64,000 nt of DNA, taken from the IMG/VR virus record IMGVR_UViG_3300038393_001148; one strand, written 5' to 3'. Source of the stretch: a virus (Duplodnaviria; Heunggongvirae; Uroviricota; Caudoviricetes). Under the pieces are notes generated by a model, which ran no database searches, was not told the origin of the DNA, and worked only from the letters and a program-made list of their open reading frames with translations. The position numbers were made by a program, and so were the translations under genes. Below, piece after piece: positions 16,175 to 33,640 of this stretch; the stretch's first letter is position 1, and every line of letters begins with the position of its first letter.

Positions 16175-17803
16175 ATGTCTCAATTTGCGGAGACGATCTA
16201 TAAGCAAAAGTACGCCTTCAAGGATGAGGTAGGTAATGTTGTCGAAACTTGGGCGGATACCGCTGATCGAGTAGCAAGCAATGTGCTTGCTGCCCTGGGT
16301 TACTCCGAGGACTCGTCAGAATTTTTTGCTATTTCTAGGCTAATTCGTCAGCGGAAGTTCATGCCGGGAGGACGTTATCTTTACGCTTCCGGAAGAGACC
16401 TTCATCAAACTCAGAATTGTCTCCTACTCAAGGCAGAGGATTCTCGCGAAGGATGGTCAGAGCTTCTTTACAAGTCATCAATGGCGTTGATGACGGGCGC
16501 AGGAATCGGAATTGATTATTCCGATGTTCGTCCTGATGGTTCCCCTATCAATAAGACAGGTGGACTAGCATCAGGACCTATTTCGTTGATGCAAATGATC
16601 AACGAGTGTGGAAGACATATTATGCAGGGAGGATCGAGACGTTCCGCTATCTGGGCTGGACTCAAATGGAATCACCCTGACTGTCCTACCTTTATTCGTG
16701 CTAAGGACTGGTCAGACGTTATCCGTGCTGAAAAAGAGAAGGACTTCAACTTTCCTGCTCCTCTAGATATGACCAACATCTCGGTCATTCTGGACGATGA
16801 ATTCTTTACTGCGTTTGATGACCCAAGTCATGAACAACATGAGTTGTCACATACTATTTATGATTCTGTCGTTAGAAGGATGCTTAAGACGGCAGAGCCA
16901 GGATTCTCGGTTGATACAGGCGATAACTCAGGAGAGACGCTAAGGAACGCCTGTACAGAAGTAACATCATCCGATGACTCAGATATTTGTAACCTCGGCT
17001 CCATCAATATGGCGAGGATCGACTCGCTGGATGAGTTCAAGGAGGCGGTACGCCTAGGAACGCTCTTCCTATTGGCGGGCACGGTTTATTCTCACCTCCC
17101 CTATGAGCAGGTGGCCGACACGCGGGCCAAGAATCGGCGGCTAGGTCTCGGCCTGATGGGGATCCATGAGTGGCTTCTCAAGCGCGGCTATGGCTATGAA
17201 CCGAATCGAGAGCTTCAGACGTGGCTTGAAGAATATGCGAAATCGACGGAGCTTGCCCACGCATGGGCGGACGAGCATGGGCTATCACGGCCGGTCAAGA
17301 CTCGCGCCATCGCGCCTACGGGAACCATCGGGATCATCGCCGAGACGACCACTGGTATCGAGCCAATCTTCTGCGTGGCATATAAGCGCCGGTACCTCGC
17401 GGACGGCAAGGACTGGAAGTTTCAATATGTCATCGATCCCACGGCCAAGCGGCTGATCGAGGACTACCAGATCGAGCCCGAAAAGATCGAGGATGCCTAC
17501 TCGCTGGCGTACGATGTAGAGCGCCGCGTAGCCATGCAGGCGTTCGTTCAACGCTACGTCGATCACGGCATTTCTTCCACGATTAACTTGCCGTACGTCT
17601 ACGAAGATGAAGCCGAGATCGAGGACTTCGGCAAGATGCTCATCGACTACCTGCCGGGGCTTCGAGGGATTACTTGCTATCCCGATGGAGCCAGGGGCGG
17701 GCAGCCCTTGACGGCGGTGGGGTATCAGGTGGCCGCTGGGCAGGAAGGCGTGGTCTTCGAGGAGGTCGAAGAACGTTGCGTCGGCGGTTCGTGCGGCATA
17801 TAG
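16175..17803 (+). CDS. nrdJ: Class II (B12-dependent) ribonucleotide reductase
   Basis: PGGRYL, GAGIG, NACTE, CNLGSIN, TRAIAPTGT, ISSTIN and C-terminal CVGGSC. Confidence 0.9.
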   Translation: MSQFAETIYKQKYAFKDEVGNVVETWADTADRVASNVLAALGYSEDSSEFFAISRLIRQRKFMPGGRYLYASGRDLHQTQNCLLLKAEDSREGWSELLYKSSMALMTGAGIGIDYSDVRPDGSPINKTGGLASGPISLMQMINECGRHIMQGGSRRSAIWAGLKWNHPDCPTFIRAKDWSDVIRAEKEKDFNFPAPLDMTNISVILDDEFFTAFDDPSHEQHELSHTIYDSVVRRMLKTAEPGFSVDTGDNSGETLRNACTEVTSSDDSDICNLGSINMARIDSLDEFKEAVRLGTLFLLAGTVYSHLPYEQVADTRAKNRRLGLGLMGIHEWLLKRGYGYEPNRELQTWLEEYAKSTELAHAWADEHGLSRPVKTRAIAPTGTIGIIAETTTGIEPIFCVAYKRRYLADGKDWKFQYVIDPTAKRLIEDYQIEPEKIEDAYSLAYDVERRVAMQAFVQRYVDHGISSTINLPYVYEDEAEIEDFGKMLIDYLPGLRGITCYPDGARGGQPLTAVGYQVAAGQEGVVFEEVEERCVGGSCGI

Positions 17804-19007: not shown

Positions 19008-19081
19008 GCCCTGGTAGCTCAGTTGGATAGAGCAGCAGACTTCTAATCTGCCGGTCACTGGTTCGAGTCCAGTTCAGGGCG
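19008..19081 (+). tRNA. tRNA-Arg(TCT)
   Basis: Full cloverleaf, loop CTTCTAA. Confidence 0.92.
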
Positions 19082-19110
19082 TTGACGGGCGAATATTCTC
19101 GTGATATAGT
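19082..19110 (+). promoter_or_regulatory. SigA-like promoter
   Basis: TTGACG-N17-TATAGT. Confidence 0.75.
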
Positions 19111-19118
19111 CCGTCGAG

Positions 19119-19254
19119 ACATAGACAGTAGCCCAATGGGCCACTGGCGCAGCCGTCAATACGGCAGAAGGTGGCGTGGATCCAGGCATATATACCCTGG
19201 CTCTGCACGGCATCGAGTTGCTAAAGGGTCGCACCCGAGGCAGTGTGTCTATGT
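19119..19254 (+). ncRNA. Unclassified structured RNA A (136 nt)
   Basis: Closing stem ACATAGACA/TGTCTATGT, internal hairpins, own promoter. Confidence 0.6.
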
Positions 19255-19262
19255 AAGTCTTA

Positions 19263-19344
19263 GGCGGGATAGCGAAGCGGTCAAACGCAGCGGACTGTAA
19301 ATCCGTCCTCTCCGAGTTCGAAGGTTCGAATCCTTCTCCCGCCA
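19263..19344 (+). tRNA. tRNA-Tyr(GTA)
   Basis: Cloverleaf with long variable arm, loop CTGTAAA. Confidence 0.92.
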
Positions 19345-19348
19345 CTTT

Positions 19349-19608
19349 AAGCGAAGTCATACGGCGTGCCCCAAAGATGTTATTAGACGTGGCCCTATAC
19401 GGGCGAAGGACTGGGTGACTACCTTCACATTGAGTAAGGATACCCACGACCGAAAGGTAAGCGCTCTCGTCCCTGGCTCTCAACCAGGAGATTATCGGGA
19501 GTATTCAGTGGTGAAATTGGTATACACGCCAGCCCTATAAGCTGGTGCCTACGGGCGTACGGGTTCGAATCCCGTCTGAATGCAGCTAACGAACGTATGA
19601 CTTCGCTT
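19349..19608 (+). ncRNA. 260-nt structured RNA enclosing a tRNA-Leu-like body with a TAT anticodon (19501-19584)
   Basis: Perfect 15-bp closing stem AAGCGAAGTCATACG/CGTATGACTTCGCTT; embedded cloverleaf with loop CCTATAA. Confidence 0.65.
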
Positions 19609-19661
19609 TATCTTGCAAGAGGCTGGGAGCTTGCCTAGCGTGTTCACGGAAAAGCTCCAAT

Positions 19662-19747
19662 GCGGTTGTGGCGGAATGGTAGACGCGCTTGGTTGAGGGC
19701 CAAGTGGGATTTATAGTCCCGTGGAAGTTCGAATCTTCTCAACCGCA
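19662..19747 (+). tRNA. tRNA-Leu(GAG)
   Basis: Cloverleaf, long V arm, loop TTGAGGG. Confidence 0.92.
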
Positions 19748-19759
19748 CTTATAGTCTTA

Positions 19760-19834
19760 GGAAGTGGCGTGAACGCACGGGGAAGTAAGGGCGAGCAGTG
19801 GGCTCGTACCTGCTTTTACACAAAGAACGCTTCC
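19760..19834 (+). ncRNA. Small structured RNA candidate
   Basis: Ends GGAAG..GCGT/ACGCTTCC pair; nested hairpin GCGAGC/GCTCGT. Confidence 0.35.
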
Positions 19835-19839
19835 GCTCT

Positions 19840-19921
19840 GCGCCCTTGGTGGAATTGGCAGACACGTCAGGTTTAGGTCCTGATGCCGCGAGGTGTGAAG
19901 GTTCGAGTCCTTCAGGGCGTA
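19840..19921 (+). tRNA. tRNA-Leu(TAG)
   Basis: Cloverleaf, loop TTTAGGT. Confidence 0.92.
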
Positions 19922-19923
19922 CT

Positions 19924-20099
19924 AGGTCAAGGACGGTTAAATTCCGCCCAGCAGCATGCGCTGGGATAAGAAGTGACTACCTTAGTTCTCTACTGACAAC
20001 GTTTGCTACGTCTAGGAATATGCGTTAGGGCCAGAGGGTTAGGCAAGCCCGCCCGTTAACGTGAGAGCAGAGAAACAGAGCTTCCCATATACTTGACCT
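19924..20099 (+). ncRNA. Unclassified structured RNA C (176 nt)
   Basis: Closing stem AGGTCAAG/CTTGACCT begins 2 nt after tRNA-Leu; hairpin CCCAGC/GCTGGG. Confidence 0.5.
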
Positions 20100-20106
20100 T
20101 ACTCTT

Positions 20107-20225
20107 GTCGTCCTGCCCAATACATGGGCCGGTGTGAAGCGCGACCGATGTAGTGGACCTGCGCGTAGGTATACATGCGCGCATAACAATTCTTACTAGG
20201 TCAAACAGGGCGTGGCAGTGACGAC
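20107..20225 (+). ncRNA. Unclassified structured RNA D (119 nt)
   Basis: Closing stem GTCGTC-CTGCC/GGCAG-T-GACGAC; internal GCCC/GGGC and GCGCG hairpins. Confidence 0.45.
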
Positions 20226-20472
20226 TGTTGGAGGCAACTCTACGGATAAGGGTGTCCCGTTGTTTAGCGATGATATCTGACCGGACCGGGCCACATTGGC
20301 ATATATAACCAATGTGGCATCTTCTGCTGATTAGAATTCAGCCGGGAAAGTTGAACTAGAGCCTAACTCCGATACATATCCCCCGAGGGTGCAGTTGCGC
20401 GGTATCCCTTTCGGCCCACCTCTTCTGTGGAACCCCCGTGCCACATAAAACAAAGACCGGGAAAGATTTATT

Positions 20473-20548
20473 GGGCGAATGGTGTTAATGGCTAACATGG
20501 GAGTCTCCAAAACTCTTGCTCTAGGTTCGAATCCTAGTTCGCCCGCCA
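20473..20548 (+). tRNA. tRNA-Trp(CCA)
   Basis: Cloverleaf, loop CTCCAAA; the only tRNA here with an encoded 3' CCA. Confidence 0.92.
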
Positions 20549-20622
20549 CGGGGAGTGGCGCAGTCTGGTAGCGCGCTTGCTTTGGGAGCAAGATGTCGCA
20601 GGTTCGAATCCTGTCTCCCCGA
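20549..20622 (+). tRNA. tRNA-Pro(TGG)
   Basis: Cloverleaf, loop TTTGGGA. Confidence 0.93.
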
Positions 20623-20624
20623 CT

Positions 20625-21008
20625 ATGAGTAACGTAATCAAGTACAAGGGAAATGATCGAGTTAAGGTCATAGTCGATATCGACCGATATCAGCTAGACG
20701 GAACGCTAGATAGCGTAGTCGGCTATCTTGCGGGTCTAGGCGTAGGCCTTGAGGATCCTACCCTCGATCTCTCTGTACACGAGGGACCCTACTACGATCC
20801 TATCGTAGTTGAGTTTACGCTGACGGGTTATCGTGAGCCAACTGAGGAAGAACTTACGGCTCACGAGAAGAAGAAGGTTCGTGACGCCGAAGCAGCCAAG
20901 AAGCGAGCAGAGAAGGAGAAGGCGGAACGTGTTGTAAAGCGTCAGAAGGACGCTGAGAAGGCACTCAAACTCGCCAGGAAGGAATTTCCGGAGCTATTCA
21001 AGGAATAG
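20625..21008 (+). CDS. Hypothetical protein with a basic coiled-coil tail
   Basis: ATG 2 nt after tRNA-Pro; no SD. Confidence 0.7.
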   Translation: MSNVIKYKGNDRVKVIVDIDRYQLDGTLDSVVGYLAGLGVGLEDPTLDLSVHEGPYYDPIVVEFTLTGYREPTEEELTAHEKKKVRDAEAAKKRAEKEKAERVVKRQKDAEKALKLARKEFPELFKE

Positions 21009-21017
21009 CTCCATTTA

Positions 21018-21090
<73 letters not shown>

Positions 21091-21116
21091 CTTGACGTGT
21101 GCGCCTGTAAGTCAAT

Positions 21117-21240
21117 ACATACAGGCATTGTCTAAACGTTACTGTTGGGCGGGAACCCAACAGAGCGGTCCCAAGGATGTAATTCCCTTGGAAGCGTGTT
21201 ACGTGACAAGAGGCGCACCTTGGAGGCGGTGCCTGTATGT
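21117..21240 (+). ncRNA. Unclassified structured RNA E (124 nt), related to RNA A
   Basis: 11-bp closing stem ACATACAGGCA/TGCCTGTATGT; hairpins CTGTTGGG/CCCAACAG and CCAAGG/CCTTGG. Confidence 0.6.
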
Positions 21241-21251
21241 CTCGTTCCCGA

Positions 21252-21323
21252 GCCCGGATAGCTGAGTGGTGTTAGCACCTGCCTTACAAGCAGGAGACGT
21301 AGGTTCGATTCCTACTCTGGGCA
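21252..21323 (+). tRNA. tRNA-Val(TAC)
   Basis: Cloverleaf, loop CTTACAA. Confidence 0.9.
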
Positions 21324-21324
21324 T

Positions 21325-21516
21325 ATGGCAAAGAAAAAGCAGGGATACGGAACCAAGTGCGATAAGTGCGAGGCCAAGCTCGGCGATGTCGAGATGAAGC
21401 GGGGCAAGCCGGTGCTGATTGATGGGAAACCGGTCAAGATCCCGATCTTCTCGTATGCCCGCGAAATCGGCGGAAAGTGCGAGACTCGCTGCCTCAAGCA
21501 CTTGACATCCAAGTGA
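21325..21516 (+). CDS. Small basic Cys-rich protein
   Basis: ATG 1 nt after tRNA-Val; CDKC...CETRC. Confidence 0.65.
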   Translation: MAKKKQGYGTKCDKCEAKLGDVEMKRGKPVLIDGKPVKIPIFSYAREIGGKCETRCLKHLTSK

Positions 21517-21535
21517 GCCTTGCTAGGCTACGCAT

Positions 21536-21757
21536 ATGAGTCATCCCGTGTTCATCTCTATCGGCCCCAAGAAGGTTGATACGGAGATCATCAAGAAGGC
21601 GATTAGCCTGAAGGAGAAGGATCTAGGTCGCCATCTCACTTCGACCGAGATTCTTCAGACGATGGGCGAGGTCTACGAGCCGGATGCGTCAAAGCGCACC
21701 TTCATCTCCTCCCGACCGCCCTCAAAGATGCCCAAGCTACACCTGCCGAGGTCTTAG
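21536..21757 (+). CDS. Hypothetical protein
   Basis: 73 aa ORF. Confidence 0.55.
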   Translation: MSHPVFISIGPKKVDTEIIKKAISLKEKDLGRHLTSTEILQTMGEVYEPDASKRTFISSRPPSKMPKLHLPRS

Positions 21758-22007
21758 TATGTGGAAAACTGTTTGGAATGTCATTTCGCTGCTCGCGTTC
21801 GCGCTGAGGTGGTGCGCGGACACGCTGGGCGAGGCCCAGTACTGGGCCTGGGAAAAGGCGGGCAGCCCTGGTGCCCAGGAATCATAACTCACTCTTCCGG
21901 ACCTACATGAGCCATCAGAAACGGGAGGATCTGTACACGTACTACAGATCATGGGGTCATAGTCGCCTCTTCTCCTGGTGGATGTCTCGCAGGTACGGAC
22001 AAGATTA

Positions 22008-22080
22008 GGGCCACTAACTCAGTTGGTAGAGTATTCGCTCGACACGCGAAAAGTCACTGGTTCGAGTCCAGTGTGGCCCA
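22008..22080 (+). tRNA. tRNA-Val(GAC), atypical C33
   Basis: Cloverleaf, loop TCGACAC. Confidence 0.8.
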
Positions 22081-22083
22081 CTA

Positions 22084-22186
22084 GGGAAGTCTATCTACAA
22101 CCGGTTGAACATATTCCTCCACTGGAAATAGTTACCGTGGTACGCCGCGAGGCGGTCAGACTGGAATCTGGCAGGTAGAACTTCCC
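22084..22186 (+). ncRNA. Structured RNA candidate (103 nt)
   Basis: Closing stem GGGAAGT/ACTTCCC, 3 nt after tRNA-Val. Confidence 0.45.
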
Positions 22187-22195
22187 AACCTTGTC

Positions 22196-22380
22196 ACAAT
22201 CACCATAACAAGCCCCAAAGGCGAGATGCATACTTTGTAAGGCCACATTGTGAGAGGCTAATGCAGACAAAGTATGCATCTCTGATCTTTGTACGGTCAA
22301 CATTAGTTGCGACGCTTCTTTGGAGCAAAGTTGTGTGTGGTGAGTACGCATAAGCGGTCAGGCGGGAACCTGGCGATTGT
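22196..22380 (+). ncRNA. Structured RNA candidate (185 nt)
   Basis: Closing stem ACAATCACCA/TGGCGATTGT (9 of 10 pairs); internal perfect 16-bp helix 22223-22238/22267-22282. Confidence 0.5.
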
Positions 22381-22387
22381 AGTACAT

Positions 22388-22935
22388 GGGGAGGACAGGC
22401 ATCGATTCGGTTCGACAACCTATCCACCTAGTTGTAGCGGTATGAGCACACCTACAGGCTCAAAGCCATAACTGGCGCTGATACTCATCAGTTCGCTCTC
22501 GCTGCCTAACCGGTAGCGAAAAAGCCGGGCCGCTGGAAGCCTGGGAACAGAACACCAGCGAGGTTAGAATCCTCCTGTGATCCGCAGAAGATCTAAGGTC
22601 CTCGACGCTGCCGCACTGGCGGCAGCGTAGGTGACTGAGCGCTCATAACGCTCGATTCGAATGGATAGCGACCAAGGTTTGGTGCCGACGCCTACTTTTA
22701 CCGGAGGGCCATCCTTGCAAGCAGAATTCTTCCGGTGTAGCCGGGAGTGGGTTGCTGAGACCTTAGGTAAATAGAATTCAGACAGTGCTAAGCGGACTCG
22801 CGATGTAAAGGCCCTTCCAGAAGGGAACGACCACCTCTCCGGCACGCACAGATAGCGAATTAGCACAGCAGTACAAGCTACTAGAAGACTAGAGATAGTG
22901 AACTGAAGACGAGGGTTCGAATCCCTCCCTCTCCA
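22388..22935 (+). ncRNA. ssrA: tmRNA, 548 nt, with an inserted domain
   Basis: Acceptor GGGGAGG/CCTCTCC-A with G3.U70, TPsiC arm, pk1, tag frame 22474-22509 (GADTHQFALAA*) after ATAACT. Confidence 0.93.
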
Positions 22936-22937
22936 CT

Positions 22938-23043
22938 TGGGATAGATGACACCGACTCCACGGTAGATAAGGGAGCACGGCTCTATGGCCGGTCAGGCAT
23001 TAGGTGATGCCGCACCTTTCGCAAACCCCGCCTCACTATCCCA
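22938..23043 (+). ncRNA. Structured RNA candidate (106 nt)
   Basis: Closing stem TGGGATAG/CTATCCCA, 2 nt after tmRNA. Confidence 0.5.
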
Positions 23044-23051
23044 TTCACTTG

Positions 23052-23267
23052 GAAGGACGGCCTGCGACACATTCTGTGGTTGAATTCCACAAGCGAAGTG
23101 TCGATACCCAGACCCGGCTTGAAAACCGGGAGCAAAGGCGGAAGACCCAGTGACAGAGCACCAGGCCTGCAACCTGGAGGTCGCCGGTTAGAGTCCGGCC
23201 GAGGGCTGGCCCTCGTAGCTCAGTGGTCCGTGACTAGCTGACTTTTATGCCCGACGAACGTCCTTCA
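23052..23267 (+). ncRNA. Structured RNA containing a circularly permuted tRNA-like domain
   Basis: Closing stem GAAGGACG/CGTCCTTC; order is D-3' strand, anticodon arm, T arm, acceptor hairpin, D-5' strand. Confidence 0.65.
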
Positions 23268-23283
23268 AATTTTGCCGCAGGAT

Positions 23284-23358
23284 GCCCGAATAGCTTCAAC
23301 TGGATAGAGCGCTTCCCTCGTAAGGAAGAGGTTATGGGTTCGAGTCCCATTTCGGGCT
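23284..23358 (+). tRNA. tRNA-Thr(CGT)
   Basis: Cloverleaf, loop CTCGTAA. Confidence 0.9.
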
Positions 23359-23373
23359 TACGCCCTACTGCTG

Positions 23374-23446
23374 GGCCCCATAGCTCAACGGTCAGAGCGC
23401 TTGTCTTATACGCAAGTGGTTCTAGGTTCGAATCCTAGTGGGGCTA
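23374..23446 (+). tRNA. tRNA-Ile(TAT)
   Basis: Cloverleaf, loop CTTATAC, acceptor GGCCCCA resembling Ile2. Confidence 0.85.
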
Positions 23447-23453
23447 CCTACTT

Positions 23454-23526
23454 GCCCTTATAGTGAAGATGGATATCACGAGTCCCTCCTAAGGACTAGT
23501 CACGGGTTCGAGTCCTGTTGAGGGCG
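23454..23526 (+). tRNA. tRNA-Arg(CCT)
   Basis: Cloverleaf, loop CTCCTAA. Confidence 0.9.
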
Positions 23527-23534
23527 CTAAATCT

Positions 23535-23902
23535 TAACGCAGCACGAATGGAAGCTAAGTTCCTCTTAGCAGGTGCAGGACTGCGAAGCATCGGACCTTG
23601 GAATCGATGTGGAGTCACTGTTTCTCAAAGTCTGGTTAGAATCCGGCTGCTTTGAAGGGAAGGTGAGTAGGCTCAAATACTCTCACTTTCCCGAAGGTGA
23701 TCTGTGACCATTAAAAGGTGAGCGGAATCCCAGATCGCATGCAATCTGTCCGCAAAGGAGTAGGGAGAGGTGAATAAAGGCGCTAGTAGGGTCGGTTTAC
23801 CGACTGCCGAACGGTCTTTACGACCCTGTAGTACTCGACCGAAACCCGGAATCCGAGCTAGGGAATTTGCTACTCCCTTGACTGACTCGGCGCGCTGCGT
23901 TA
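23535..23902 (+). ncRNA. Large unclassified structured RNA (368 nt)
   Basis: Closing stem TAACGCAGC/GCTGCGTTA; several long helices; T-loop-like hairpin; no convincing ORF. Confidence 0.6.
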
Positions 23903-23912
23903 CTCTTGCAAT

Positions 23913-24341
23913 ATGCTGCTACGACGCATTCATCGCAATGCGCTCTCGTGGGTCAACGAAGAGCGGGCCTTGGCTGGACTGGACCCGATAGGCGACTTCC
24001 CAACGGGATTTCGCGGGGGTGATGCCAACCCCATCACGAACGCCTTGGGATCTCATGAGCGCGAGGTCGCCCCGAAGTTAGACGAGGCCATAAAGGAAGC
24101 GGAGGCGGACCCGCTCGGAGCGGCGTTAGAGGCTGCGGTTATTCCTAGCCCCATGTCGGCCTTCTTTTGGTTTGCGCTCTTTACGGTTGGGTTCTATCCC
24201 AAGTACGACCAGGCCAAGATGTATGAGAGGCTTCCGCCAAAGCGCCGTGCCCTTGTAGCAAGGAGGCTGCGGAACCTACCAAGCGATGCGCGAGAGCGGT
24301 ATTACCGCGTAGAGCAAGTGGTAAAAATGCTGAAGGAATAA
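23913..24341 (+). CDS. Hypothetical protein
   Basis: 142 aa ORF ending at the 5' end of tRNA-Ser. Confidence 0.65.
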   Translation: MLLRRIHRNALSWVNEERALAGLDPIGDFPTGFRGGDANPITNALGSHEREVAPKLDEAIKEAEADPLGAALEAAVIPSPMSAFFWFALFTVGFYPKYDQAKMYERLPPKRRALVARRLRNLPSDARERYYRVEQVVKMLKE

Positions 24342-24427
24342 GGAGAGGTGCCTGAGTGGTCGAAAGGGCTCGCCTGCTAAGCGAGTGTAGTTAATACCTA
24401 CCAGGGGTTCGAATCCCCTTCTCTCCG
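24342..24427 (+). tRNA. tRNA-Ser(GCT)
   Basis: Cloverleaf, long V arm, loop CTGCTAA. Confidence 0.92.
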
Positions 24428-24428
24428 C

Positions 24429-24457
24429 TTGACACCTGAAACGAAGTACGATAGGCT
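24429..24457 (+). promoter_or_regulatory. SigA-like promoter, near-leaderless
   Basis: TTGACA-N17-TAGGCT, ATG 6 nt later. Confidence 0.7.
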
Positions 24458-24463
24458 GAAGAT

Positions 24464-24925
24464 ATGAAGCTCGGAGAAGCACTAACATTACGAAGCGACC
24501 TAGTGTCGCGCTTGGGTGAGGTACGCAACCGTATCTCTTCCAACGTCCTGGTCCAGGACCAGGAGCGGCCAGCGGAGGACCCGAACGCCCTCATCGAGGA
24601 GCACGGAAACCTCTGCGATGAGCTTGAGAGCTTGGTCACCAAGATCAACCTCACCAACTCCCAGACGCGCCTTCCCTCCGGGGAGACGCTGACGGAGGCC
24701 CTCGTCAAGCGAGACGTGTTCGCCCAGCGTCTCAACGGCCTGCGGCAGGCGGCGCAAGCTGCCGATGTCACCCACGCCCGTCGCTACTCCCTCTCGGAGA
24801 TCAAGATGGTTCCGACCATCAAGGTTGCCGATCTCAATGAGGAGATCGATGGCTTGGCGAAGCAGCGCCGTCAGCTTGACACGGCGATCCAGGCCCATAA
24901 CTGGACCACGGATCTAGTAGAGTAA
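24464..24925 (+). CDS. DIP1984 family protein
   Basis: MKLGEALTLRSDL...VQDQERPAEDP...TLTEALVKRD...RYSLSEIK...IQAHNWTTDL matches the family pattern as I recall it. Confidence 0.8.
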   Translation: MKLGEALTLRSDLVSRLGEVRNRISSNVLVQDQERPAEDPNALIEEHGNLCDELESLVTKINLTNSQTRLPSGETLTEALVKRDVFAQRLNGLRQAAQAADVTHARRYSLSEIKMVPTIKVADLNEEIDGLAKQRRQLDTAIQAHNWTTDLVE

Positions 24926-25158
24926 GTTAGTTGGTAGTCGTAAAGTAGCGAATGTCAGGGCTGACTATGCGCCTTAAGCTAGTCCCATCGGAGACCCGAA
25001 ATCTCGCCTCCCCGCTGCGCGAAGGGAATAAGTTACCGTTCCGCGCCAACCGGGTACAGATGATCGTCACCGTTCATAAGTTACTACCAGACATTGAACT
25101 TTGCGATGAGGGATGGCATTACCCTGTAGGTAATGCCGGGTTCGGGGACTTAACTTAC
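24922..25158 (+). ncRNA. Structured RNA overlapping the DIP1984 stop codon (237 nt)
   Basis: Closing stem GTAAGTTA/TAACTTAC; TGGTAGT/ACTACCA; AATGTC/GACATT; 9-bp hairpin GGCATTACC/GGTAATGCC. Confidence 0.55.
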
Positions 25159-25163
25159 AACGA

Positions 25164-25237
25164 CGCGGGATAGTGGAAGCATGGCGCCACGCTAGCCTCA
25201 TAAGCTAGAGATCTGGGTTCGAATCCCGGTCCCGCTA
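25164..25237 (+). tRNA. tRNA-Met(CAT), initiator-like acceptor
   Basis: Cloverleaf, loop CTCATAA, C1:U72 mismatch, no 3GC anticodon stem. Confidence 0.85.
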
Positions 25238-25238
25238 C

Positions 25239-25311
25239 GCCTTCTTAACTCAATTGGCAGAGTAACTGACTCTTAATCAGGAGGTTCTGGGTTCGAGTCC
25301 CAGAGAAGGCA
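25239..25311 (+). tRNA. tRNA-Lys(CTT)
   Basis: Cloverleaf, loop CTCTTAA. Confidence 0.9.
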
Positions 25312-25313
25312 CT

Positions 25314-25485
25314 TAGACGGTACGAAAGAGTTGCCCGTTACAAAACGGCTGGAAACAACGGGACATCCAACCTCAGAGCGGTTAGAATCCGCCATTCTAG
25401 GGCTTAGCGGCCCTACGTGCCTTAGCGGGCATAAGAATAAGGGAAATCGAGAGGTGCGAGCCGAAACACCCTCGCGCACCGTCTA
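25314..25485 (+). ncRNA. Structured RNA candidate (172 nt)
   Basis: Closing stem TAGACGGT/ACCGTCTA, 2 nt after tRNA-Lys; GCGG-TTAGAAT-CCGC and TAGGGC/GCCCTA hairpins. Confidence 0.55.
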
Positions 25486-25549
25486 TCTATAATAACTTCG
25501 GAGCCGAGATCGAAGCGGCCAACTCTGACCCGGAGTCTAAATGGGTAAT

Positions 25550-25623
25550 GGGTGATTAGCTCAGTTGGTGAGAGCGCTCGTCTGATAAGCGAGAGGTCCC
25601 TGGTTCAAGTCCAGGATTGCCCA
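25550..25623 (+). tRNA. tRNA-Ile(GAT)
   Basis: Cloverleaf, loop CTGATAA. Confidence 0.93.
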
Positions 25624-25625
25624 CT

Positions 25626-25720
25626 AGAGGACCGGTCGATGGATAAGTTCGAACTATTCCATCCCTCAGACACAAGCGGCCATGCTGTTGTCTGCGTATG
25701 AACTGGCGACCGCATCCTCT
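25626..25720 (+). ncRNA. Structured RNA candidate (95 nt)
   Basis: AGAGGA-CGGTCG/CGACCG-TCCTCT closing helix, 2 nt after tRNA-Ile; two internal hairpins. Confidence 0.5.
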
Positions 25721-25728
25721 TAATCTAC

Positions 25729-25901
25729 TGATCCCATGGGTCAGCCTGTTCTCGCCAGGGAAATTGCCTACAACTGTGTGGCGATATGTTTGTAGGAAGC
25801 CGCCCTCCCACGCCAGGGGCCAGAATAGCGGCAGCGAGAAACTTAACTCACCAAGCCCAACCTCTATTGGTAAGAATAGAGTAGTATCCCTTACCGGATC
25901 A
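25729..25901 (+). ncRNA. Structured RNA candidate (173 nt)
   Basis: TGATCC/GGATCA ends; TTCTCGC/GCGAGAA internal helix. Confidence 0.4.
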
Positions 25902-25966
25902 ATGCGAAAATCCTCCATGTTGGCATGGTCGCGGGAGCAAGGATTGGAATCCGAGGCTCCCACCAA

Positions 25967-26038
25967 TGGTGGGTGCTCGATAGGCAAGAGAACGGACTGT
26001 TAATCCGCTGCATGTGGGTTCGAATCCCACCCCACCAG
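25967..26038 (+). tRNA. tRNA-Asn(GTT)
   Basis: Cloverleaf with short D stem, loop CTGTTAA. Confidence 0.8.
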
Positions 26039-26046
26039 CTAATGGT

Positions 26047-26124
26047 TTCACAGTTGTCAGCACAGGTTGACTCCCTGTCAGGAGAAATTTGGCCCTCCGT
26101 CTGACTCAAAGACCTGACTGTGAA
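26047..26124 (+). ncRNA. Small structured RNA candidate (78 nt)
   Basis: TTCACAGT/ACTGTGAA closing stem. Confidence 0.35.
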
Positions 26125-26194
26125 CTTATCTCATAGATATTCGGTAATCTGACAAGGAGGTAGTGGTTAAGTTCGAACTGTAGCGAAGTAACTT

Positions 26195-26266
26195 GGCGGG
26201 GTGGCGGAATGGCTTACGCACGGGTCTGCAAAACCTGTTATACGGGTTCGATTCCCGTCCTCGCCT
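26195..26266 (+). tRNA. tRNA-Cys(GCA)
   Basis: Cloverleaf, loop CTGCAAA, U73. Confidence 0.9.
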
Positions 26267-26268
26267 CT

Positions 26269-26460
26269 ATGCAGTTGCTTACTATCGAAGAATTTCATGC
26301 ACTACCCGAAGGTACCGAGCTAATCTCAATTCTTGATGAGGTCAAGATCAAGGGCAGGGATTATATCGATCTTGACACCCGCGCCGGGTTGATAGCTTGG
26401 TATGTTCGAAAGCTACCTGAGCCTACGCTTGCGGACAGTGAATGGATCGATAATAGTTGA
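26269..26460 (+). CDS. Hypothetical protein (63 aa)
   Basis: ATG 2 nt after tRNA-Cys. Confidence 0.6.
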   Translation: MQLLTIEEFHALPEGTELISILDEVKIKGRDYIDLDTRAGLIAWYVRKLPEPTLADSEWIDNS

Positions 26461-26463
26461 CTT

Positions 26464-26550
26464 GGAGGGTTGGCAGAGTCCGGTTTAATGCAACGGTCTT
26501 GAAAACCGTCAGGTGTCACAGCCTCCTGGGTTCGAATCCCAGACCCTCCG
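26464..26550 (+). tRNA. tRNA-Ser(TGA)
   Basis: Cloverleaf, long V arm, loop CTTGAAA. Confidence 0.92.
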
Positions 26551-26553
26551 CTT

Positions 26554-26674
26554 GGGGCGAATGGTAAGGTAGCCCGTCAATTCGTGGCGTCCGGTGTCGT
26601 TCGAGCCGACGTTAAACATATGGATGCAAATAGGGTAGTTCCCGCCTACTTGGGTTCGAATCCCAAGCGCCCCA
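26554..26674 (+). ncRNA. tRNA-like RNA with an expanded anticodon arm (121 nt)
   Basis: GGGGCG/CGCCCC-A acceptor, TTGGG-TTCGAAT-CCCAA T arm, GCGTCC/GGATGC stem with a 29-nt loop. Confidence 0.55.
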
Positions 26675-26707
26675 TCTGCGGAGTCAAGGTTCCGTACCTT
26701 AATATGT

Positions 26708-27253
26708 ATGAACCTCCGCTGGGCCGCTTTCCTTGATGCGCTAGAAATTATCGTTCGGTACAGTTCGGTTCTCCTTGCTGTAGGATTATTGACCTGGGCC
26801 GTTTCTTCTATCACGGTTAACAAGAAGACACAAGAGATAAATCGCATTGTTCGCACTATCCAGGAAGCCAAGCGTGGACCTCGGGGTGAACGTGGTCCGT
26901 CTGGACCTCAAGGATTGCGAGGCCGCGAAGGTGCGGTTGGACCGAGAGGCGTTCAGGGTCGGACGGGCGCTAGCGGCCCTAGAGGACAGAGGGGTCCACA
27001 GGGCGCACAGGGCCAGCGAGGTGCCGAAGGGCTTCGGGGACCCCAGGGTGTACAGGGCGCTACAGGAAAAACTGGAGCAACTGGTCCCGAAGGCCCTCGC
27101 GGTGAGCGAGGCCCAACTGGCGCTCAAGGAGCTACGGGGCTACGCGGCCCTCAAGGAATCCCTGGAGTCCAGGGCCCGTTGGGACCTGAAGGGCCGATTG
27201 GCCCACGAGGACCAATCGGTTCGGTCACTTGTCAGGTTTTACAAAGCTGCTGA
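26708..27253 (+). CDS. Membrane-anchored collagen-like protein
   Basis: N-terminal TM helix followed by about 38 Gly-X-Y triplets. Confidence 0.85.
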   Translation: MNLRWAAFLDALEIIVRYSSVLLAVGLLTWAVSSITVNKKTQEINRIVRTIQEAKRGPRGERGPSGPQGLRGREGAVGPRGVQGRTGASGPRGQRGPQGAQGQRGAEGLRGPQGVQGATGKTGATGPEGPRGERGPTGAQGATGLRGPQGIPGVQGPLGPEGPIGPRGPIGSVTCQVLQSC

Positions 27254-27303
27254 AGGCGGTGTAGTAAAGCTGGAGTTAAGTGGATGGATTATCCAACGCT
27301 GAG

Positions 27304-27376
27304 GGCAACTTAGCTCAGTTGGTAGAGCGGCAGACTGAAAATTTGCGCGTCACTGGTTCGAGTCCAGTAGTTGCCA
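27304..27376 (+). tRNA. tRNA-Phe(GAA)
   Basis: Cloverleaf, loop CTGAAAA. Confidence 0.92.
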
Positions 27377-27389
27377 TCGACTTACACAT

Positions 27390-27462
27390 GCCGGGTTGGT
27401 CTAGCGGTTAGGACGCCTGTCTTTCACACAGGAAATCACGGGTTCGAACCCCGTACCCGGTA
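27390..27462 (+). tRNA. tRNA-Glu(TTC)
   Basis: Cloverleaf, loop CTTTCAC. Confidence 0.92.
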
Positions 27463-27564
27463 CTTACTCCCAACAGTGAAAGTCGCCTTGCCCGGCTTGT
27501 CCTAGGAAAGCTCCGGGCGAACAAGAAGTAGCAAAGCCCTGATTGTGGGCAGTTTCCGATCTAC

Positions 27565-27649
27565 GCCGAAGTGACGGAACCGGTAGACGTAGCGGACTCA
27601 AAATCCGCCGCCCCATAAAGGCGTGAGGGTTCGAGTCCCTCCTTCGGCA
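27565..27649 (+). tRNA. tRNA-Leu(CAA)
   Basis: Cloverleaf, loop CTCAAAA. Confidence 0.92.
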
Positions 27650-27664
27650 TTGAGTAGAACCCAC

Positions 27665-27736
27665 TGCGGAGTGGTGTAATTGGCAACACATGGGTTTCTG
27701 GTACCTAGATTCGGGGTTCAAGTCCCTGCTCCGCAT
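27665..27736 (+). tRNA. tRNA-Gln(CTG)
   Basis: Cloverleaf, loop TTCTGGT. Confidence 0.88.
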
Positions 27737-27745
27737 TATTGATTT

Positions 27746-27829
27746 GGCGGCGTGCTGGAATTGGAGATACAGGGCAAGCTTAAACCTTGCTGCCTTCGGG
27801 GATTGTGGGTTCGAGTCCCACCGCCGCTA
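27746..27829 (+). tRNA. tRNA-Leu(TAA)
   Basis: Cloverleaf, loop CTTAAAC. Confidence 0.9.
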
Positions 27830-27891
27830 CTGTGAGATACGGGGTGAGCCCGCCTGCGCGATGAGCGTAAAGAGGAGGAAGATATTGTGTG

Positions 27892-27964
27892 GGTCCGGTA
27901 GCTCAGGGGAAGAGCGCCAGCCGTTATAAGCTGGAAGTCGTTGGTTCGAATCCAACCTGGATCA
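27892..27964 (+). tRNA. tRNA with an 8-nt anticodon loop (CGTTATAA; Ile(TAT)-like)
   Basis: Acceptor GGTCCGG/CTGGATC, D arm, CCAGC/GCTGG stem, canonical T arm. Confidence 0.7.
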
Positions 27965-28022
27965 CGGTCTACTCGACCTTAAGGAGTGGCACATCATCCG
28001 AATCCCATGAACGTATCTTGTC

Positions 28023-28051
28023 TTGACTGTCCGTAGATGGACTGGTATCAT
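28023..28051 (+). promoter_or_regulatory. SigA-like promoter
   Basis: TTGACT-N17-TATCAT, ATG 6 nt later. Confidence 0.7.
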
Positions 28052-28057
28052 GGATCT

Positions 28058-28207
28058 ATGACTCAATATTACGTAGGAGCGGTTATCGGGGCCATCCTAG
28101 CCGTCATCGGTTACCTCGGCCCCGAGGATGGAGGGACGCTAGAGCTTATTGGCCTTGCGATTCTCGCTGTTGCCCTCTATAAGCTTTTCGACCTGAACTG
28201 GTTCTGA
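28058..28207 (+). CDS. Small two-TM membrane protein (49 aa)
   Basis: Manual translation MTQYYVGAVIGAILAVIGYLGPEDGGTLELIGLAILAVALYKLFDLNWF. Confidence 0.65.
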   Translation: MTQYYVGAVIGAILAVIGYLGPEDGGTLELIGLAILAVALYKLFDLNWF

Positions 28208-28208
28208 G

Positions 28209-28601
28209 ATGGCCTTCAAGTTCTGCAACACAGAAACCCTGATCCGGCTCAATAACGAGTGCATCGATAATCCTCACTGCAATCGAGCTATTGATGAGAA
28301 GGCCTATGAGTTGCTTGACCCTGAGGGCACGCACCTTTTTGACTCGTCGCACATCGTCTTCCGGATGGCCGGTCATGGATTCGTCCGCCCGATGGTCAGC
28401 ATGAAGATGAAGGACACTATGGAGCCGGTGCAGGTCACCATGGATCTCTCCGATGAACAGTGGAATTCCCTTCGTACGTTCACGAAGGAGATGGACGATA
28501 TGTTGAAGTCGGGCAAGGAATGTGTGGACTGTGGATACGTCCGCCCGCACCAACCCGGCGACTACATTTGTCTGATCTGTAGGACCAGCGGTAAGAAGTA
28601 A
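28209..28601 (+). CDS. Protein with C-terminal DYxC Zn-ribbon tag (member 1)
   Basis: CVDC-x9-DYICLICR. Confidence 0.75.
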   Translation: MAFKFCNTETLIRLNNECIDNPHCNRAIDEKAYELLDPEGTHLFDSSHIVFRMAGHGFVRPMVSMKMKDTMEPVQVTMDLSDEQWNSLRTFTKEMDDMLKSGKECVDCGYVRPHQPGDYICLICRTSGKK

Positions 28602-28606
28602 ATAGT

Positions 28607-28680
28607 GTGGGGATAGCATAATTGGTTAATGCCCTTGGTTGTGGACCAAGACAATGTGGGTTCGAGTCCCACTCCTCACC
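28607..28680 (+). tRNA. tRNA-His(GTG)
   Basis: Cloverleaf, loop TTGTGGA, C73; T rather than G at -1. Confidence 0.9.
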
Positions 28681-28686
28681 CCTCAA

Positions 28687-28759
28687 GCCTCCGTAACTCA
28701 ATTGGCAGAGTGGCTGACTTTTAATCAGAACGTTGCAGGTTCGAGTCCTGCCGGGGGCA
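28687..28759 (+). tRNA. tRNA-Lys(TTT)
   Basis: Cloverleaf, loop CTTTTAA. Confidence 0.92.
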
Positions 28760-28761
28760 CT

Positions 28762-29109
28762 ATGTTCCAGGTTGGTGATGTACTCAAATATGCCAAATCT
28801 GAACTTGACCCTCCGATGATTTGCCAGCACGGAGAATACGTTGGCACAGTGCTGGCTATCGAGGAGGGTGGCCGGATGCGTGTTATGTGGCACTGGGATC
28901 CCGTAGAATATTGTCGCATCCATGGTTCCTCGATCTCTCGGATCCAAGAAACTTGGAAAGGGCAGTCGGGGGTTAGGGGTTATTGTGCCTCGGTTTCGGC
29001 CTTCTTTTATTTCTCCAATGATTGCGCAGTATGCGGCAGGACGATTGGGCACGTTTTGGATTACATCTGTAGTGAATGTCGTAACATGGCCGATTCGTCC
29101 AGTGGTTAG
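28762..29109 (+). CDS. Zn-ribbon tag protein (member 2)
   Basis: ATG 2 nt after tRNA-Lys; CAVC-x8-DYICSECR; stop codon lies inside tRNA-Glu. Confidence 0.7.
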   Translation: MFQVGDVLKYAKSELDPPMICQHGEYVGTVLAIEEGGRMRVMWHWDPVEYCRIHGSSISRIQETWKGQSGVRGYCASVSAFFYFSNDCAVCGRTIGHVLDYICSECRNMADSSSG

Positions 29110-29159
29110 GACGCCAGCCTCTCACGTTGGAAACACGGGTTCGAATCCCGTATCGGCTA
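29088..29159 (+). tRNA. tRNA-Glu(CTC)
   Basis: Cloverleaf, loop CTCTCAC. Confidence 0.92.
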
Positions 29160-29197
29160 CTCTTGATCCATTCTCCCGCGTTTGGTAGTATCTTCTC

Positions 29198-29533
29198 ATG
29201 AGAGTCCGCGCTGTATACACCCTCAAGTCCTTTGCCGAACTAAAGGATGCTCTTGAGTACGCCAAGAGCATCAAGGCGGGAGCGGGAAGCCATGCGGACG
29301 CTGAGCTAGAGATTGAGTTCGATAAGAAATCAAAGAAGCTCGGATCCCTCGGCGGCAAAGGACTCACAGCGATCTTGCCCACCTCACCTCCAGAGGAAGA
29401 GGAGTCAGCGCTTCCCTGGAAGGTGGTCGTGGTCAACGAGGATCCGGTGCCCGGAGGAAGTCCCTGCGCCGAGTGTGACCAGCCCCATTTCGAGGAAGAC
29501 TTCCTCTGCTCTGATTGTCGAGCCGCCGCATGA
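29198..29533 (+). CDS. Zn-ribbon tag protein (member 3)
   Basis: CAEC-x7-DFLCSDCR. Confidence 0.75.
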   Translation: MRVRAVYTLKSFAELKDALEYAKSIKAGAGSHADAELEIEFDKKSKKLGSLGGKGLTAILPTSPPEEEESALPWKVVVVNEDPVPGGSPCAECDQPHFEEDFLCSDCRAAA

Positions 29534-29820
29534 TCTTCTACAAGACCCGTACGGTGCAAAAGGGTAAAGAGCTTCACGACATCGAAGCTGTGAAGAAACG
29601 TTTGAAGGAAATTCACGACCATCCTAAGTCGGCTTATCACAAGGCGCTCAAGGAAAATCGTATTATGGTGTGCTACGACCAGAATCGCGCCACGCGGGGC
29701 AAATATGACATCATCGAATTCACCGAGGTCGAGCCTCCGGGCTCCTCGGTTTGCGGAGGTTGTCAGAAGAGGTTCTTTAGCCTAGAAGAAGACTATCTAT
29801 GTCCGAAGTGCCGCTCCTGA
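29530..29820 (+). CDS. Zn-ribbon tag protein (member 4)
   Basis: CGGC-x9-DYLCPKCR; ATGA overlap with member 3. Confidence 0.75.
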   Translation: MIFYKTRTVQKGKELHDIEAVKKRLKEIHDHPKSAYHKALKENRIMVCYDQNRATRGKYDIIEFTEVEPPGSSVCGGCQKRFFSLEEDYLCPKCRS

Positions 29821-30071
29821 ATCCAGAACTCCTGCGCCCCGGATTGGTTATGAAGGATTCTCGATGGACTGATTGGTACACCGTTGCCGAAGTCCATGGG
29901 CGCGAATTCATCTTTGATGGCTATCCCAATGCAGTGTATGATTTCTTTAGTCCGATAAGCGGTGGTACTTGGGTTATTCCTAACGCTAGTTGGTGTGCAT
30001 CTTGCGAAGAACCCGCACTAATAAATGACTACCTATGCCATCATTGTAGAAAGGAGGAGAATAATGGCTAG
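29799..30071 (+). CDS. Zn-ribbon tag protein (member 5)
   Basis: CASC-x7-DYLCHHCR. Confidence 0.7.
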   Translation: MSEVPLLNPELLRPGLVMKDSRWTDWYTVAEVHGREFIFDGYPNAVYDFFSPISGGTWVIPNASWCASCEEPALINDYLCHHCRKEENNG

Positions 30072-30711
30072 CCGCGCCCGTAGCGTCTCAATTAACGACC
30101 AGACTTTGTGGTTCGACATGAAGCTGGCTCATCTCAAGGCCACCGACAAGCAGATAGAGCTTTTGGCGACTATCGAAGATCTTGAGATGGATGATCTGCT
30201 AGAGTCGAACGTGACGCAGGGCGACGTGCTCAAGCGCCTCCGCGAGGCATTAGGCCAGGCTCCAATCCCTCCAGATGTTCTGCTCAAGAGGCAGAAGTGG
30301 AGACGGGAACGTCAGACGCAGCCGCCCTGCCGTCTCTGCCACAAGATTGGCGACAGTACACGTCACCACTTCGTGAATAAGTGGATTCTGAAGGAATTGT
30401 CAGGATACGGGCGCGAGTGGTCTAACAGACAAGAGAACTGTATTCCACTGTGTATTGATTGCCACCGGGATCTGCACGATAGAAGCGGCCCGTCGAAATC
30501 AATTGCGCATGTCCTCACGGCGCGCGAGAAGGATTTCGCCAATCGCGCTATCGAACGGCTCTCGGAAGAGCGTCCTAAGCTTCTTATCCTCATTGCCAAG
30601 GGTTCCGATACGGTATATGAGGCTCGACTGATCAAAGACTGGTTCGAAGGTCTGTTCGAGGTGGAAGCTGCTGAACTCGCTGAGGATGAGCCTCTCGCGG
30701 CGGTTGCGTAA
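30064..30711 (+). CDS. HNH-like endonuclease domain protein
   Basis: CRLC...RHH...NCIPLCIDCHRDLH. Confidence 0.7.
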   Translation: MASRARSVSINDQTLWFDMKLAHLKATDKQIELLATIEDLEMDDLLESNVTQGDVLKRLREALGQAPIPPDVLLKRQKWRRERQTQPPCRLCHKIGDSTRHHFVNKWILKELSGYGREWSNRQENCIPLCIDCHRDLHDRSGPSKSIAHVLTAREKDFANRAIERLSEERPKLLILIAKGSDTVYEARLIKDWFEGLFEVEAAELAEDEPLAAVA

Positions 30712-30725
30712 AGGCCGCCACACTT

Positions 30726-30798
30726 GCGCCTGTAGCTCAGTGGATAGAGCGCATCCCTGCGGAGGATGAGGTCACTGGTTCAAATCCAGTCAGGCGCG
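30726..30798 (+). tRNA. tRNA-Arg(GCG)
   Basis: Cloverleaf, loop CTGCGGA. Confidence 0.88.
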
Positions 30799-30800
30799 CT

Positions 30801-31103
30801 ATGGCCGAATGTGCTAATTGTGAAATGCGGCAGGCCCCGGAGGAAGATTTCCTCTGCCAATCCTGTCGGGACTGGGAGAACGGGGAGATCAGCTTGGAGA
30901 GTATCTTCGTCGCCGAGTCTCATGATAAATTTGCTCCACCAGAGGCCGCCATGGAGATGGCGAGATGCGATAACGTCGTTTACTTCACGATGTGCAAGTA
31001 CGAGGAAGGTACTTTCCACCGCAAGGCTGATGTCAAGGCTACGTTCTCCATGGACATCAAGACGTTGCTCAAGGCCCTTCGAGCATTGGATGTGGTAGAG
31101 TAA
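30801..31103 (+). CDS. Zn-ribbon tag protein (member 6, N-terminal tag)
   Basis: ATG 2 nt after tRNA-Arg; CANC-x8-DFLCQSCR. Confidence 0.75.
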   Translation: MAECANCEMRQAPEEDFLCQSCRDWENGEISLESIFVAESHDKFAPPEAAMEMARCDNVVYFTMCKYEEGTFHRKADVKATFSMDIKTLLKALRALDVVE

Positions 31104-31107
31104 ACTC

Positions 31108-31302
31108 ATGGCTCCTAAGAAGAAAGCGGCCTTCGTGCCGCAAGAAAAAGATGATGGCACTCGTTGGCGCGTCATGCGCTACACTGAGAAGGGTGTCACT
31201 GAGGTCTACCCGGCACGGTCGGGCCTCATGAAGCGCGAGGCTCAGCGACTAGCCGAAGGATTGGCGCTAGGGGGAGCCTTCATCGAGCAGGTCGAAGAAT
31301 AA
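31108..31302 (+). CDS. Hypothetical protein
   Basis: 64 aa ORF. Confidence 0.6.
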   Translation: MAPKKKAAFVPQEKDDGTRWRVMRYTEKGVTEVYPARSGLMKREAQRLAEGLALGGAFIEQVEE

Positions 31303-31304
31303 CT

Positions 31305-31378
31305 GCCCTTGTCGCCTAACGGATATGGCACTTGACTTCGGATCAAGAATAATGCGGGTTCGAATCCTGCCGGGGGCG
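31305..31378 (+). tRNA. tRNA-Arg(TCG)
   Basis: Cloverleaf, loop CTTCGGA. Confidence 0.88.
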
Positions 31379-31386
31379 CTCGTCTA

Positions 31387-32469: not shown

Positions 32470-32475
32470 CAGTTT

Positions 32476-32549
32476 GCGGCTGTAGCTCAGTTGGCTAGAG
32501 CGTCTCCTTGCCATGGAGAAGGTCGAGGGTTCGAATCCCTTCAGCCGCT
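32476..32549 (+). tRNA. tRNA-Gly(GCC)
   Basis: Cloverleaf, loop TTGCCAT. Confidence 0.93.
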
Positions 32550-32606
32550 TTGTTTGGCATCTTTTGGGAAGGGTATTCCTAGTACAAACCCTTTTCGAAA
32601 GGATTT

Positions 32607-32765
32607 ATGTCAGTCTTACTTTGGATACTCGGTATTATCCTCGTCATATTTGGCTTCTTCTGGATTCTCGGAGGATCGCTGCTATATGGCATCATCGCCA
32701 TTGTGATAGGCCTACTCCTAATGGGCTATCTCGGCGGTGGGTTTGGATATACCCGACGATTGTAA
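32607..32765 (+). CDS. Small two-TM membrane protein (52 aa), resembling actinobacterial GPGG-motif proteins
   Basis: Manual translation MSVLLWILGIILVIFGFFWILGGSLLYGIIAIVIGLLLMGYLGGGFGYTRRL; GAAAGGA SD. Confidence 0.65.
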   Translation: MSVLLWILGIILVIFGFFWILGGSLLYGIIAIVIGLLLMGYLGGGFGYTRRL

Positions 32766-33260: not shown

Positions 33261-33276
33261 CTGACACGTAAGTGTC

Positions 33277-33564: not shown

Positions 33565-33569
33565 CACTT

Positions 33570-33640
33570 TGGGGAATGAGGTAACGGCAGCCTGCGAGGT
33601 TTTGGCCCTCGTCGTCCTGGTTCGAATCCAGGTTCCCCAG
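33570..33640 (+). tRNA. tRNA-Gln(TTG)
   Basis: Cloverleaf, loop TTTTGGC. Confidence 0.88.

Follow-up and report, generated by a model that had tools for sequence, protein, structure and literature searches.

The window, meaning the whole stretch of 64,000 nucleotides that was analysed, comes from a large phage encoding a DnaE-type polymerase, DnaB, a ribonucleotide reductase, a terminase and 39 tRNAs. The longest contig carrying proteins of this phage measures 165 kb. The nearest cultured matches of its DnaB, with 25-27% identity, are found in phages of Rhodococcus and Gordonia and in Bxz1-like Mycobacterium phages. The 39 tRNA genes called by ARAGORN extend from 19008 to 36144 and include two tRNA-Ile(TAT); one has an 8-nt anticodon loop (27892-27965). 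The order of the tRNAs is largely conserved among related phages. A tmRNA gene lies inside this array. Promoter and terminator scans around it gave no hit on the + strand.

The tmRNA gene occupies 22388..22935 (+) and is in one piece. Its length is 548 nt, counted to the discriminator A at 22935. The CCA end is only partly encoded, the first C alone being present. These coordinates and this length had been given in a preliminary description of the DNA, together with the tag GADTHQFALAA and both arms of a helix in the pseudoknot region; all are confirmed here. The features are as follows.

22388..22413, +, 5' half of the tRNA-like domain: acceptor strand with G3, D-like loop, 5' strand of helix 2a
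22439..22462, +, pk1, identified from sequence and homologous to pk1 in 10 related phage tmRNAs (p<=0.007)
22474..22509, +, tag frame GADTHQFALAA-stop, called by ARAGORN on deletion forms
22499..22519, +, helix 5 enclosing the stop codon (P 0.9-1.0, constrained fold)
22525..22560, +, pk2 with the conserved loop motif AACAGAA (H-type scan)
22560..22574, +, T-loop-like hairpin, loop TTAGAAT, directly 3' of pk2 (P 0.88)
22591..22768, +, 178-nt multibranched domain at the pk3 position (the block), closed by the 10-bp helix 22591-22600/22759-22768
22606..22627, +, stable GC-rich hairpin within the block (P 1.0 in all folds)
22627..22695, +, predicted four-way junction (MFE)
22637-22653, +, anticodon-loop-like hairpin, loop CTCATAA, inside the four-way junction (MFE)
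22656-22662, +, TTCGAAT motif inside the predicted four-way junction
22720..22756, +, long irregular hairpin on the 3' side of the block (P 0.5-0.6)
22785..22866, +, second domain of 82 nt at the pk4 position, weakly structured (z -0.23, P ~0.28)
22875..22935, +, 3' strand of helix 2, GAC before the T arm, T arm, acceptor 3' strand with U70, discriminator A
32766-33261, +, RNase P RNA gene of ~496 nt with both terminal conserved motifs (RF00010, 25.4 bits, E 7e-6)

The tRNA-like domain has a 7-bp acceptor stem with G3-U70, the discriminator A and a T arm (22911-22927) that is uninterrupted. Helix 2 joins the 5' and 3' parts; its duplex reaches -25.2 kcal/mol and is seen in the constrained fold. 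A resume context is followed by an open tag frame that ends with LAA and a stop codon. Judged from its sequence, the gene is a one-piece tmRNA that has all the required features and lacks the optional pk3 and pk4.

The Rfam model RF00023 matches 22388-22938 with 36.2 bits (E 6.6e-13), below the cut-off of 47 because of the penalty from the inserted length; an ortholog of 450 nt scores 68.8 bits. The permuted two-piece model RF04321 yields only 16.5 bits, the gene order is standard and the 3' part of the tRNA is not found upstream. ARAGORN calls no tmRNA on the native 548-nt sequence and calls one after each of 5 test deletions of 158-221 nt. As any of the 5 restores the call, this rescue is a length effect and tells nothing about the boundaries of the block. 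Among the checks recommended in the preliminary description, the RF00023 alignment located the excess, leaving ~193 nt unaligned 3' of helix 5; the ARAGORN result is not specific to any boundary. Genes of this kind escape ARAGORN and score below the Rfam cut-off, so phage tmRNAs are undercounted. The 701 bases around the tmRNA gene are identical in 3 Logan assemblies, which argues against misassembly.

The closing helix of the block comprises 9 Watson-Crick pairs and one G-U. It had been reported to enclose 178 nt; the helix exists, but this figure counts both arms and 158 nt lie between them. Taken alone the helix is borderline with respect to chance, since such a helix appears in 6.7% of 150 shuffles. 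It is missing from the unconstrained full-length fold and reaches P ~0.66-0.72 once the fold is barred from using pk1, the tag region and pk2. The block as a whole folds with z -3.03 and -3.73 in two runs against shuffles. The variable regions of relatives give z +0.1 to -2.3, against -3.7 for the block, a comparison to be read with the block having been chosen for its helix. Inside the block, the irregular hairpin 22720..22756 has a competing alternative pairing with 22701-22708. Shuffles produce the anticodon-like hairpin at a rate of 2.8%, which makes it a weak sign. A hairpin that seemed common to the block and the 450-nt ortholog was rejected on shuffling (p 0.52).

No convincing H-type pseudoknot corresponding to pk3 or pk4 was found after pk2, with or without the block, the candidates overlapping stronger hairpins. 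None was found in the domain 22785..22866 either. Deletion of the block leaves a region of 139 nt after pk2 that contains neither pk3 nor pk4, and the resulting 370-nt product is shorter than the tmRNAs of all four closest relatives. The closeness of this remainder to the usual tmRNA length is therefore a numerical coincidence, and the remainder is not a canonical tmRNA.

Related loci were gathered with the reductase and the helicase as anchors and with two DNA patterns; in the metagenome scan, the T-arm pattern matched mostly tRNA genes. Orthologous tmRNAs of 346-461 nt were found in 15 related phages at the same array site, 3' of tRNA-Val and 5' of tRNA-Thr/Arg. The four closest, from phages whose reductases are 72-76% identical to that of the window, measure 461, 450, 434 and 409 nt. 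The others measure 438, 423, 423, 406, 399, 382, 382, 381, 370, 361 and 346 nt; the 438-nt ortholog and one of 382 nt were found by pattern and are absent from the trees. Among the 16 family members found, the window tmRNA has the greatest length. The DnaB tree unites the window with the carriers of the 409-, 450- and 461-nt tmRNAs at a support of 95/93 and places the 461-nt carrier next to it as sister. These phages also cluster in the reductase tree, where support is lower (87/84) and no internal order emerges. From the DnaB grouping, the ancestor of the closest group probably already had a tmRNA of more than 400 nt.

Two segments keep a constant length across the family: the one that runs from the 5' end to the resume codon (76-86 nt) and the 3' tail (61-65 nt). 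Between the pk2 loop and helix 2 lie 328 nt in the window, 195-247 nt in the closest group and 85-184 nt in the other relatives. The extra length of the window tmRNA is thus located wholly 3' of pk2. Because the closest orthologs already reach 409-461 nt, with 195-247 nt after pk2, the excess of the window tmRNA over its kin is 81-133 nt rather than 178. The preliminary description had seen a discrete insert in a tmRNA of 370 nt. This does not agree with the lengths of the closest kin or with the missing pk3 and pk4 of the deletion product, and the flanks of the block align to relatives no better than the block does. Relatives with ~78% to 100% protein identity yielded no tmRNA, so part of the block may still stem from one recent insertion.

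Tags have 9-11 codons in the closest group and 24-38 codons in the other relatives. Those encoded by relatives include ADTHTFALAA, AESHDYALAA, GAHNYALAA and GNTNEFPLVA. The unusually long tags, of 24-38 codons, occur in the eleven more distant relatives (loci L403, L405, L406, L407, L465, L466, L467, L468, L474, L491 and L591), and several of them share a LAIPASF motif. In these distant relatives (L403-L591), the region after pk2 is short and consists mostly of one compact pseudoknot.

The boundary of conservation in the family falls exactly after pk2. Both pk1 and pk2 align significantly to many relatives (p down to 0.003). Neither the block nor the 31 nt that precede it nor the 107 nt that follow show significant alignment to the four closest relatives, and the block compared with each of them gives p 0.19-0.67. 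A MAFFT alignment of five orthologs was unreliable 3' of pk2. In nearly all members pk2 is an H-type pseudoknot, with differing stem sequences and a fixed loop motif; its stem 1 is paired at 83% across 13 sequences. In all four closest relatives a T-loop-like hairpin follows pk2 or, in L372, a second pk2-like element, the 434-nt tmRNA of that locus (7034-7467) having two pk2-like pseudoknots in tandem. After the T-loop-like hairpin, the closest group carries two or more hairpin domains of variable size in place of pk3 and pk4. Most tmRNAs of the distant group instead keep one compact pseudoknot after pk2; that of L491 has extra hairpins. In L375, a perfect T-arm-like hairpin in the variable region (17216-17230) misleads ARAGORN into a false permuted call.

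About 280 tmRNAs sampled from Actinomycetota (Thermoleophilia and others) measure 317-400 nt, in a search that under-detects oversized genes just as it under-scores the window gene. The sample includes four unpublished genomes (G216, G260, G298 and G327), which do not set the quoted range. A match of 459 nt in Thermoleophilia was rejected since it contains an assembly gap of 100 N. The longest tmRNA in a 2005 survey had 425 nt (PMC1168896), and the longer genes named for the 2025 tmRNA database are intron or permuted forms (PMC11915505). By its sequence, the size of the window tmRNA is beyond ordinary variation. Ordinary pk2-pk4 expansions of actinobacterial tmRNAs, which had been named as the finding that would speak against an added domain, do not account for it, as it lies beyond the sampled range of Actinomycetota. 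The earlier idea of an added domain in the pseudoknot region holds as far as added structure is concerned, with 328 nt after pk2 against 117-122 nt in Solirubrobacterales.

The window tmRNA shares with the standard SsrA described by RF00023 an unpermuted order, a tRNA-like domain with G3-U70, helix 2, pk1, a tag ending in LAA, helix 5 and pk2. It differs by its 548 nt instead of ~360, by the lack of recognisable pk3 and pk4 and by the 328 nt after pk2. The tmRNA of the Bxz1-like (cluster C) mycobacteriophage ScottMcG (NC_011269.2) is likewise phage-borne, placed in a tRNA array and longer than the host tmRNA. However, it is annotated with 437 nt, 111 nt less than in the window, part of its excess is made by a 25-codon tag, and only 152 nt follow pk2. 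Streptomyces phage Sushi23 (MF358542.1) has a pk2 with the AACAGAA loop (p 0.003) and a short tag ending in FALAA, but its tmRNA is the opposite extreme, with 281 nt and only 63 nt after pk2. Intron-form tmRNAs (PMC11915505) also have genes of more than 500 nt with extra structured sequence. In those genes a group I intron lies in the T-loop, whereas in the window the T-loop is intact and the extra sequence, without group I core, lies in the pseudoknot region. Finally, the chromosomal tmRNAs of Solirubrobacterales (Thermoleophilia) have the same 5' loop motif and carry a similar tag, ADHEFALAA. Unlike the window tmRNA, they measure 358-361 nt and have canonical pk2-pk4. The likeness of the 5' loop motif and of the tag to Solirubrobacterales tmRNAs suggests a Thermoleophilia host. 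One relative, L383 (IMG/VR provirus record, G044), is classed as a provirus and has a 381-nt tmRNA and a compact tRNA array; its source genome could reveal the host.

We think it fairly probable that the added RNA is a retained and tolerated expansion after pk2 in a working phage one-piece tmRNA. If expressed, the tmRNA would be cut from the transcript of the tRNA array, completed by CCA addition, charged with alanine and bound by host SmpB and EF-Tu. It would then tag stalled proteins with (A)GADTHQFALAA. A host SmpB is assumed because none was found in 5 relatives. The parts gripped by the ribosome, namely the tRNA-like domain, helix 2, pk1, the tag frame, helix 5 and pk2, are conserved. Between pk2 and helix 2, the phage clade would have lost the canonical pk3 and pk4 and acquired hairpin domains, each closed on itself, one step at a time; none of those found is larger than the 178-nt block. 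The block would be kept in the mature RNA and bulge towards the solvent from the ring around the 30S head, and any role would be limited to folding or stability. In agreement with such tolerance, tagging requires pk1 and not pk2-pk4, which serve folding and maturation (PMC3968760). Also, at the mRNA entrance of the ribosome tmRNA is held in place by pk2 and helix 5, and its other pseudoknots move (PMC8012679). The results of pseudoknot replacement in E. coli may not hold at +190 nt. The family forms a natural size series, from 346 to 548 nt (281 nt in Streptomyces phage Sushi23), which separates the parts that are kept (tRNA-like domain, pk1, tag, helix 5 and pk2) from those free to vary. It extends the tolerated size of tmRNA well past 425 nt and opens a direct test of the payload that the ring around the 30S head can bear.

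The stronger folding of the block compared with the variable regions of relatives counts against a plain tolerated expansion. It would fit a retained block that is a selected module, for example a protein-binding platform. Other candidates are a tertiary brace that stands in for pk3 and pk4 and docks onto the T-loop-like hairpin 3' of pk2, or a decoy that mimics a tRNA and draws host anticodon nucleases to its CAU anticodon-like loop. The T-loop-like hairpin after pk2 is common to the five closest tmRNAs, T-loop hairpins are enriched in the non-tRNA RNA of the array (7 observed, the T arm of the tmRNA included, where 0.1 would be expected), and the loop of the anticodon-like hairpin is that of the two CAU tRNAs of the phage. 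However, the block sequence is common to no relative, Rfam family (best E 1.8), or collection of cultured phages or plasmids, where BLASTN of the gene and of its variable region gave only T-arm or chance matches. As evidence the anticodon-like hairpin is weak: its p of 0.03 belongs to one among several motifs tried, and 3 of the 4 closest relatives lack it, the match in L372 being unrelated. A selected module thus seems unlikely to us. We consider it rather unlikely, too, that the RNA after pk2 is a second functional unit, either a tRNA-like decoy or ribosome docking site, or a processing signal giving a two-piece tmRNA. Such a signal would possibly be read by the phage's own remodelled RNase P. 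To our knowledge, neither a decoy or docking site of this kind nor a signal converting an unpermuted tmRNA into two pieces has been described so far.

The acceptor stem with G3-U70, helix 2, pk1, the resume context, the LAA tag, helix 5 and pk2 are intact and conserved in the family. This makes it improbable that the gene no longer tags, whether because it is decaying or because it soaks up SmpB as the truncated tmRNA of phage DS6A does, in spite of the low Rfam score, the loss of pk3 and pk4 and the precedent of a DS6A-like molecule that inhibits host tmRNA (PMC4131195). The preliminary description had also envisaged a new kind of excised element. The block would then be spliced out or nicked, like an intron or an rRNA-type intervening sequence, to give an RNA of ~370 nt or a two-piece tmRNA. 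The long-range helix joining the ends of the block, as in intervening sequences, and the remainder close to 360 nt would fit this idea. The 883 tmRNA introns known so far all interrupt the T-loop, with averages of 293-414 nt, but the authors of that census point out that their search may systematically have overlooked introns at other sites (PMC11915505). In the window the T-loop is intact. The absence of group I core motifs from the block, already pointed out in that description, was borne out by searches for P7 and neighbouring motifs and for Rfam intron matches, which could overlook a strongly diverged core; group II motifs were not found either. Searches of the block for self-cleaving ribozymes revealed no hammerhead, HDV-like core or Rfam match, and no ORF with start and stop spans it. 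The arms of the helix are inverted repeats, as in a MITE or IS remnant, but the flanks are not duplicated and show no target-site duplication. No second copy of the block was found in the window, in the fetched loci, or in cultured phages and plasmids. A search for RtcB in five relatives gave no intact gene, only one short match with stops. Finally, the closing helix has just 10 bp and recurs in shuffles at the rate given above, and the deletion product lacks pk3 and pk4 and is shorter than the four closest tmRNAs. The sequence does not support an excised intron or a mobile element, and we regard excision as improbable.

A tendency to expansion appears in other RNAs of this phage, namely the RNase P RNA and the array spacers. 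The RNase P RNA has 425 nt between its two terminal conserved motifs, more than the copies of three related phages (214, 301 and 342 nt). Of 12 array spacers tested, 11 fold better than shuffles (z -1.2 to -7), and many fold about as well as the 178-nt block. In the family, tRNA spacing does not track tmRNA length. One spacer RNA, between tRNA-Thr and tRNA-Val (21117-21240, +), is exceptionally stable (z -7.1). In the arrays of L366, L375 and L371, the tRNA called by ARAGORN in third or fourth place has a TTA (stop) or otherwise odd anticodon. A T-loop variant hairpin, with a stem of 4-5 bp and the loop TTAGA[AG]T, recurs five times in the non-tRNA RNA of the array (20326, 22560, 23183, 23632 and 25378), with all copies on the + strand. 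Similar hairpins are present in L365, L372 and L378. From its recurrence, this element could be a shared docking or processing signal. Just 3' of the tmRNA gene, a tRNA-like or YrlA-like RNA (23144-23270, +) matches the Rfam models of tRNA (24.6 bits) and YrlA (23.9 bits), both below cut-off. It has a weak counterpart in L372.
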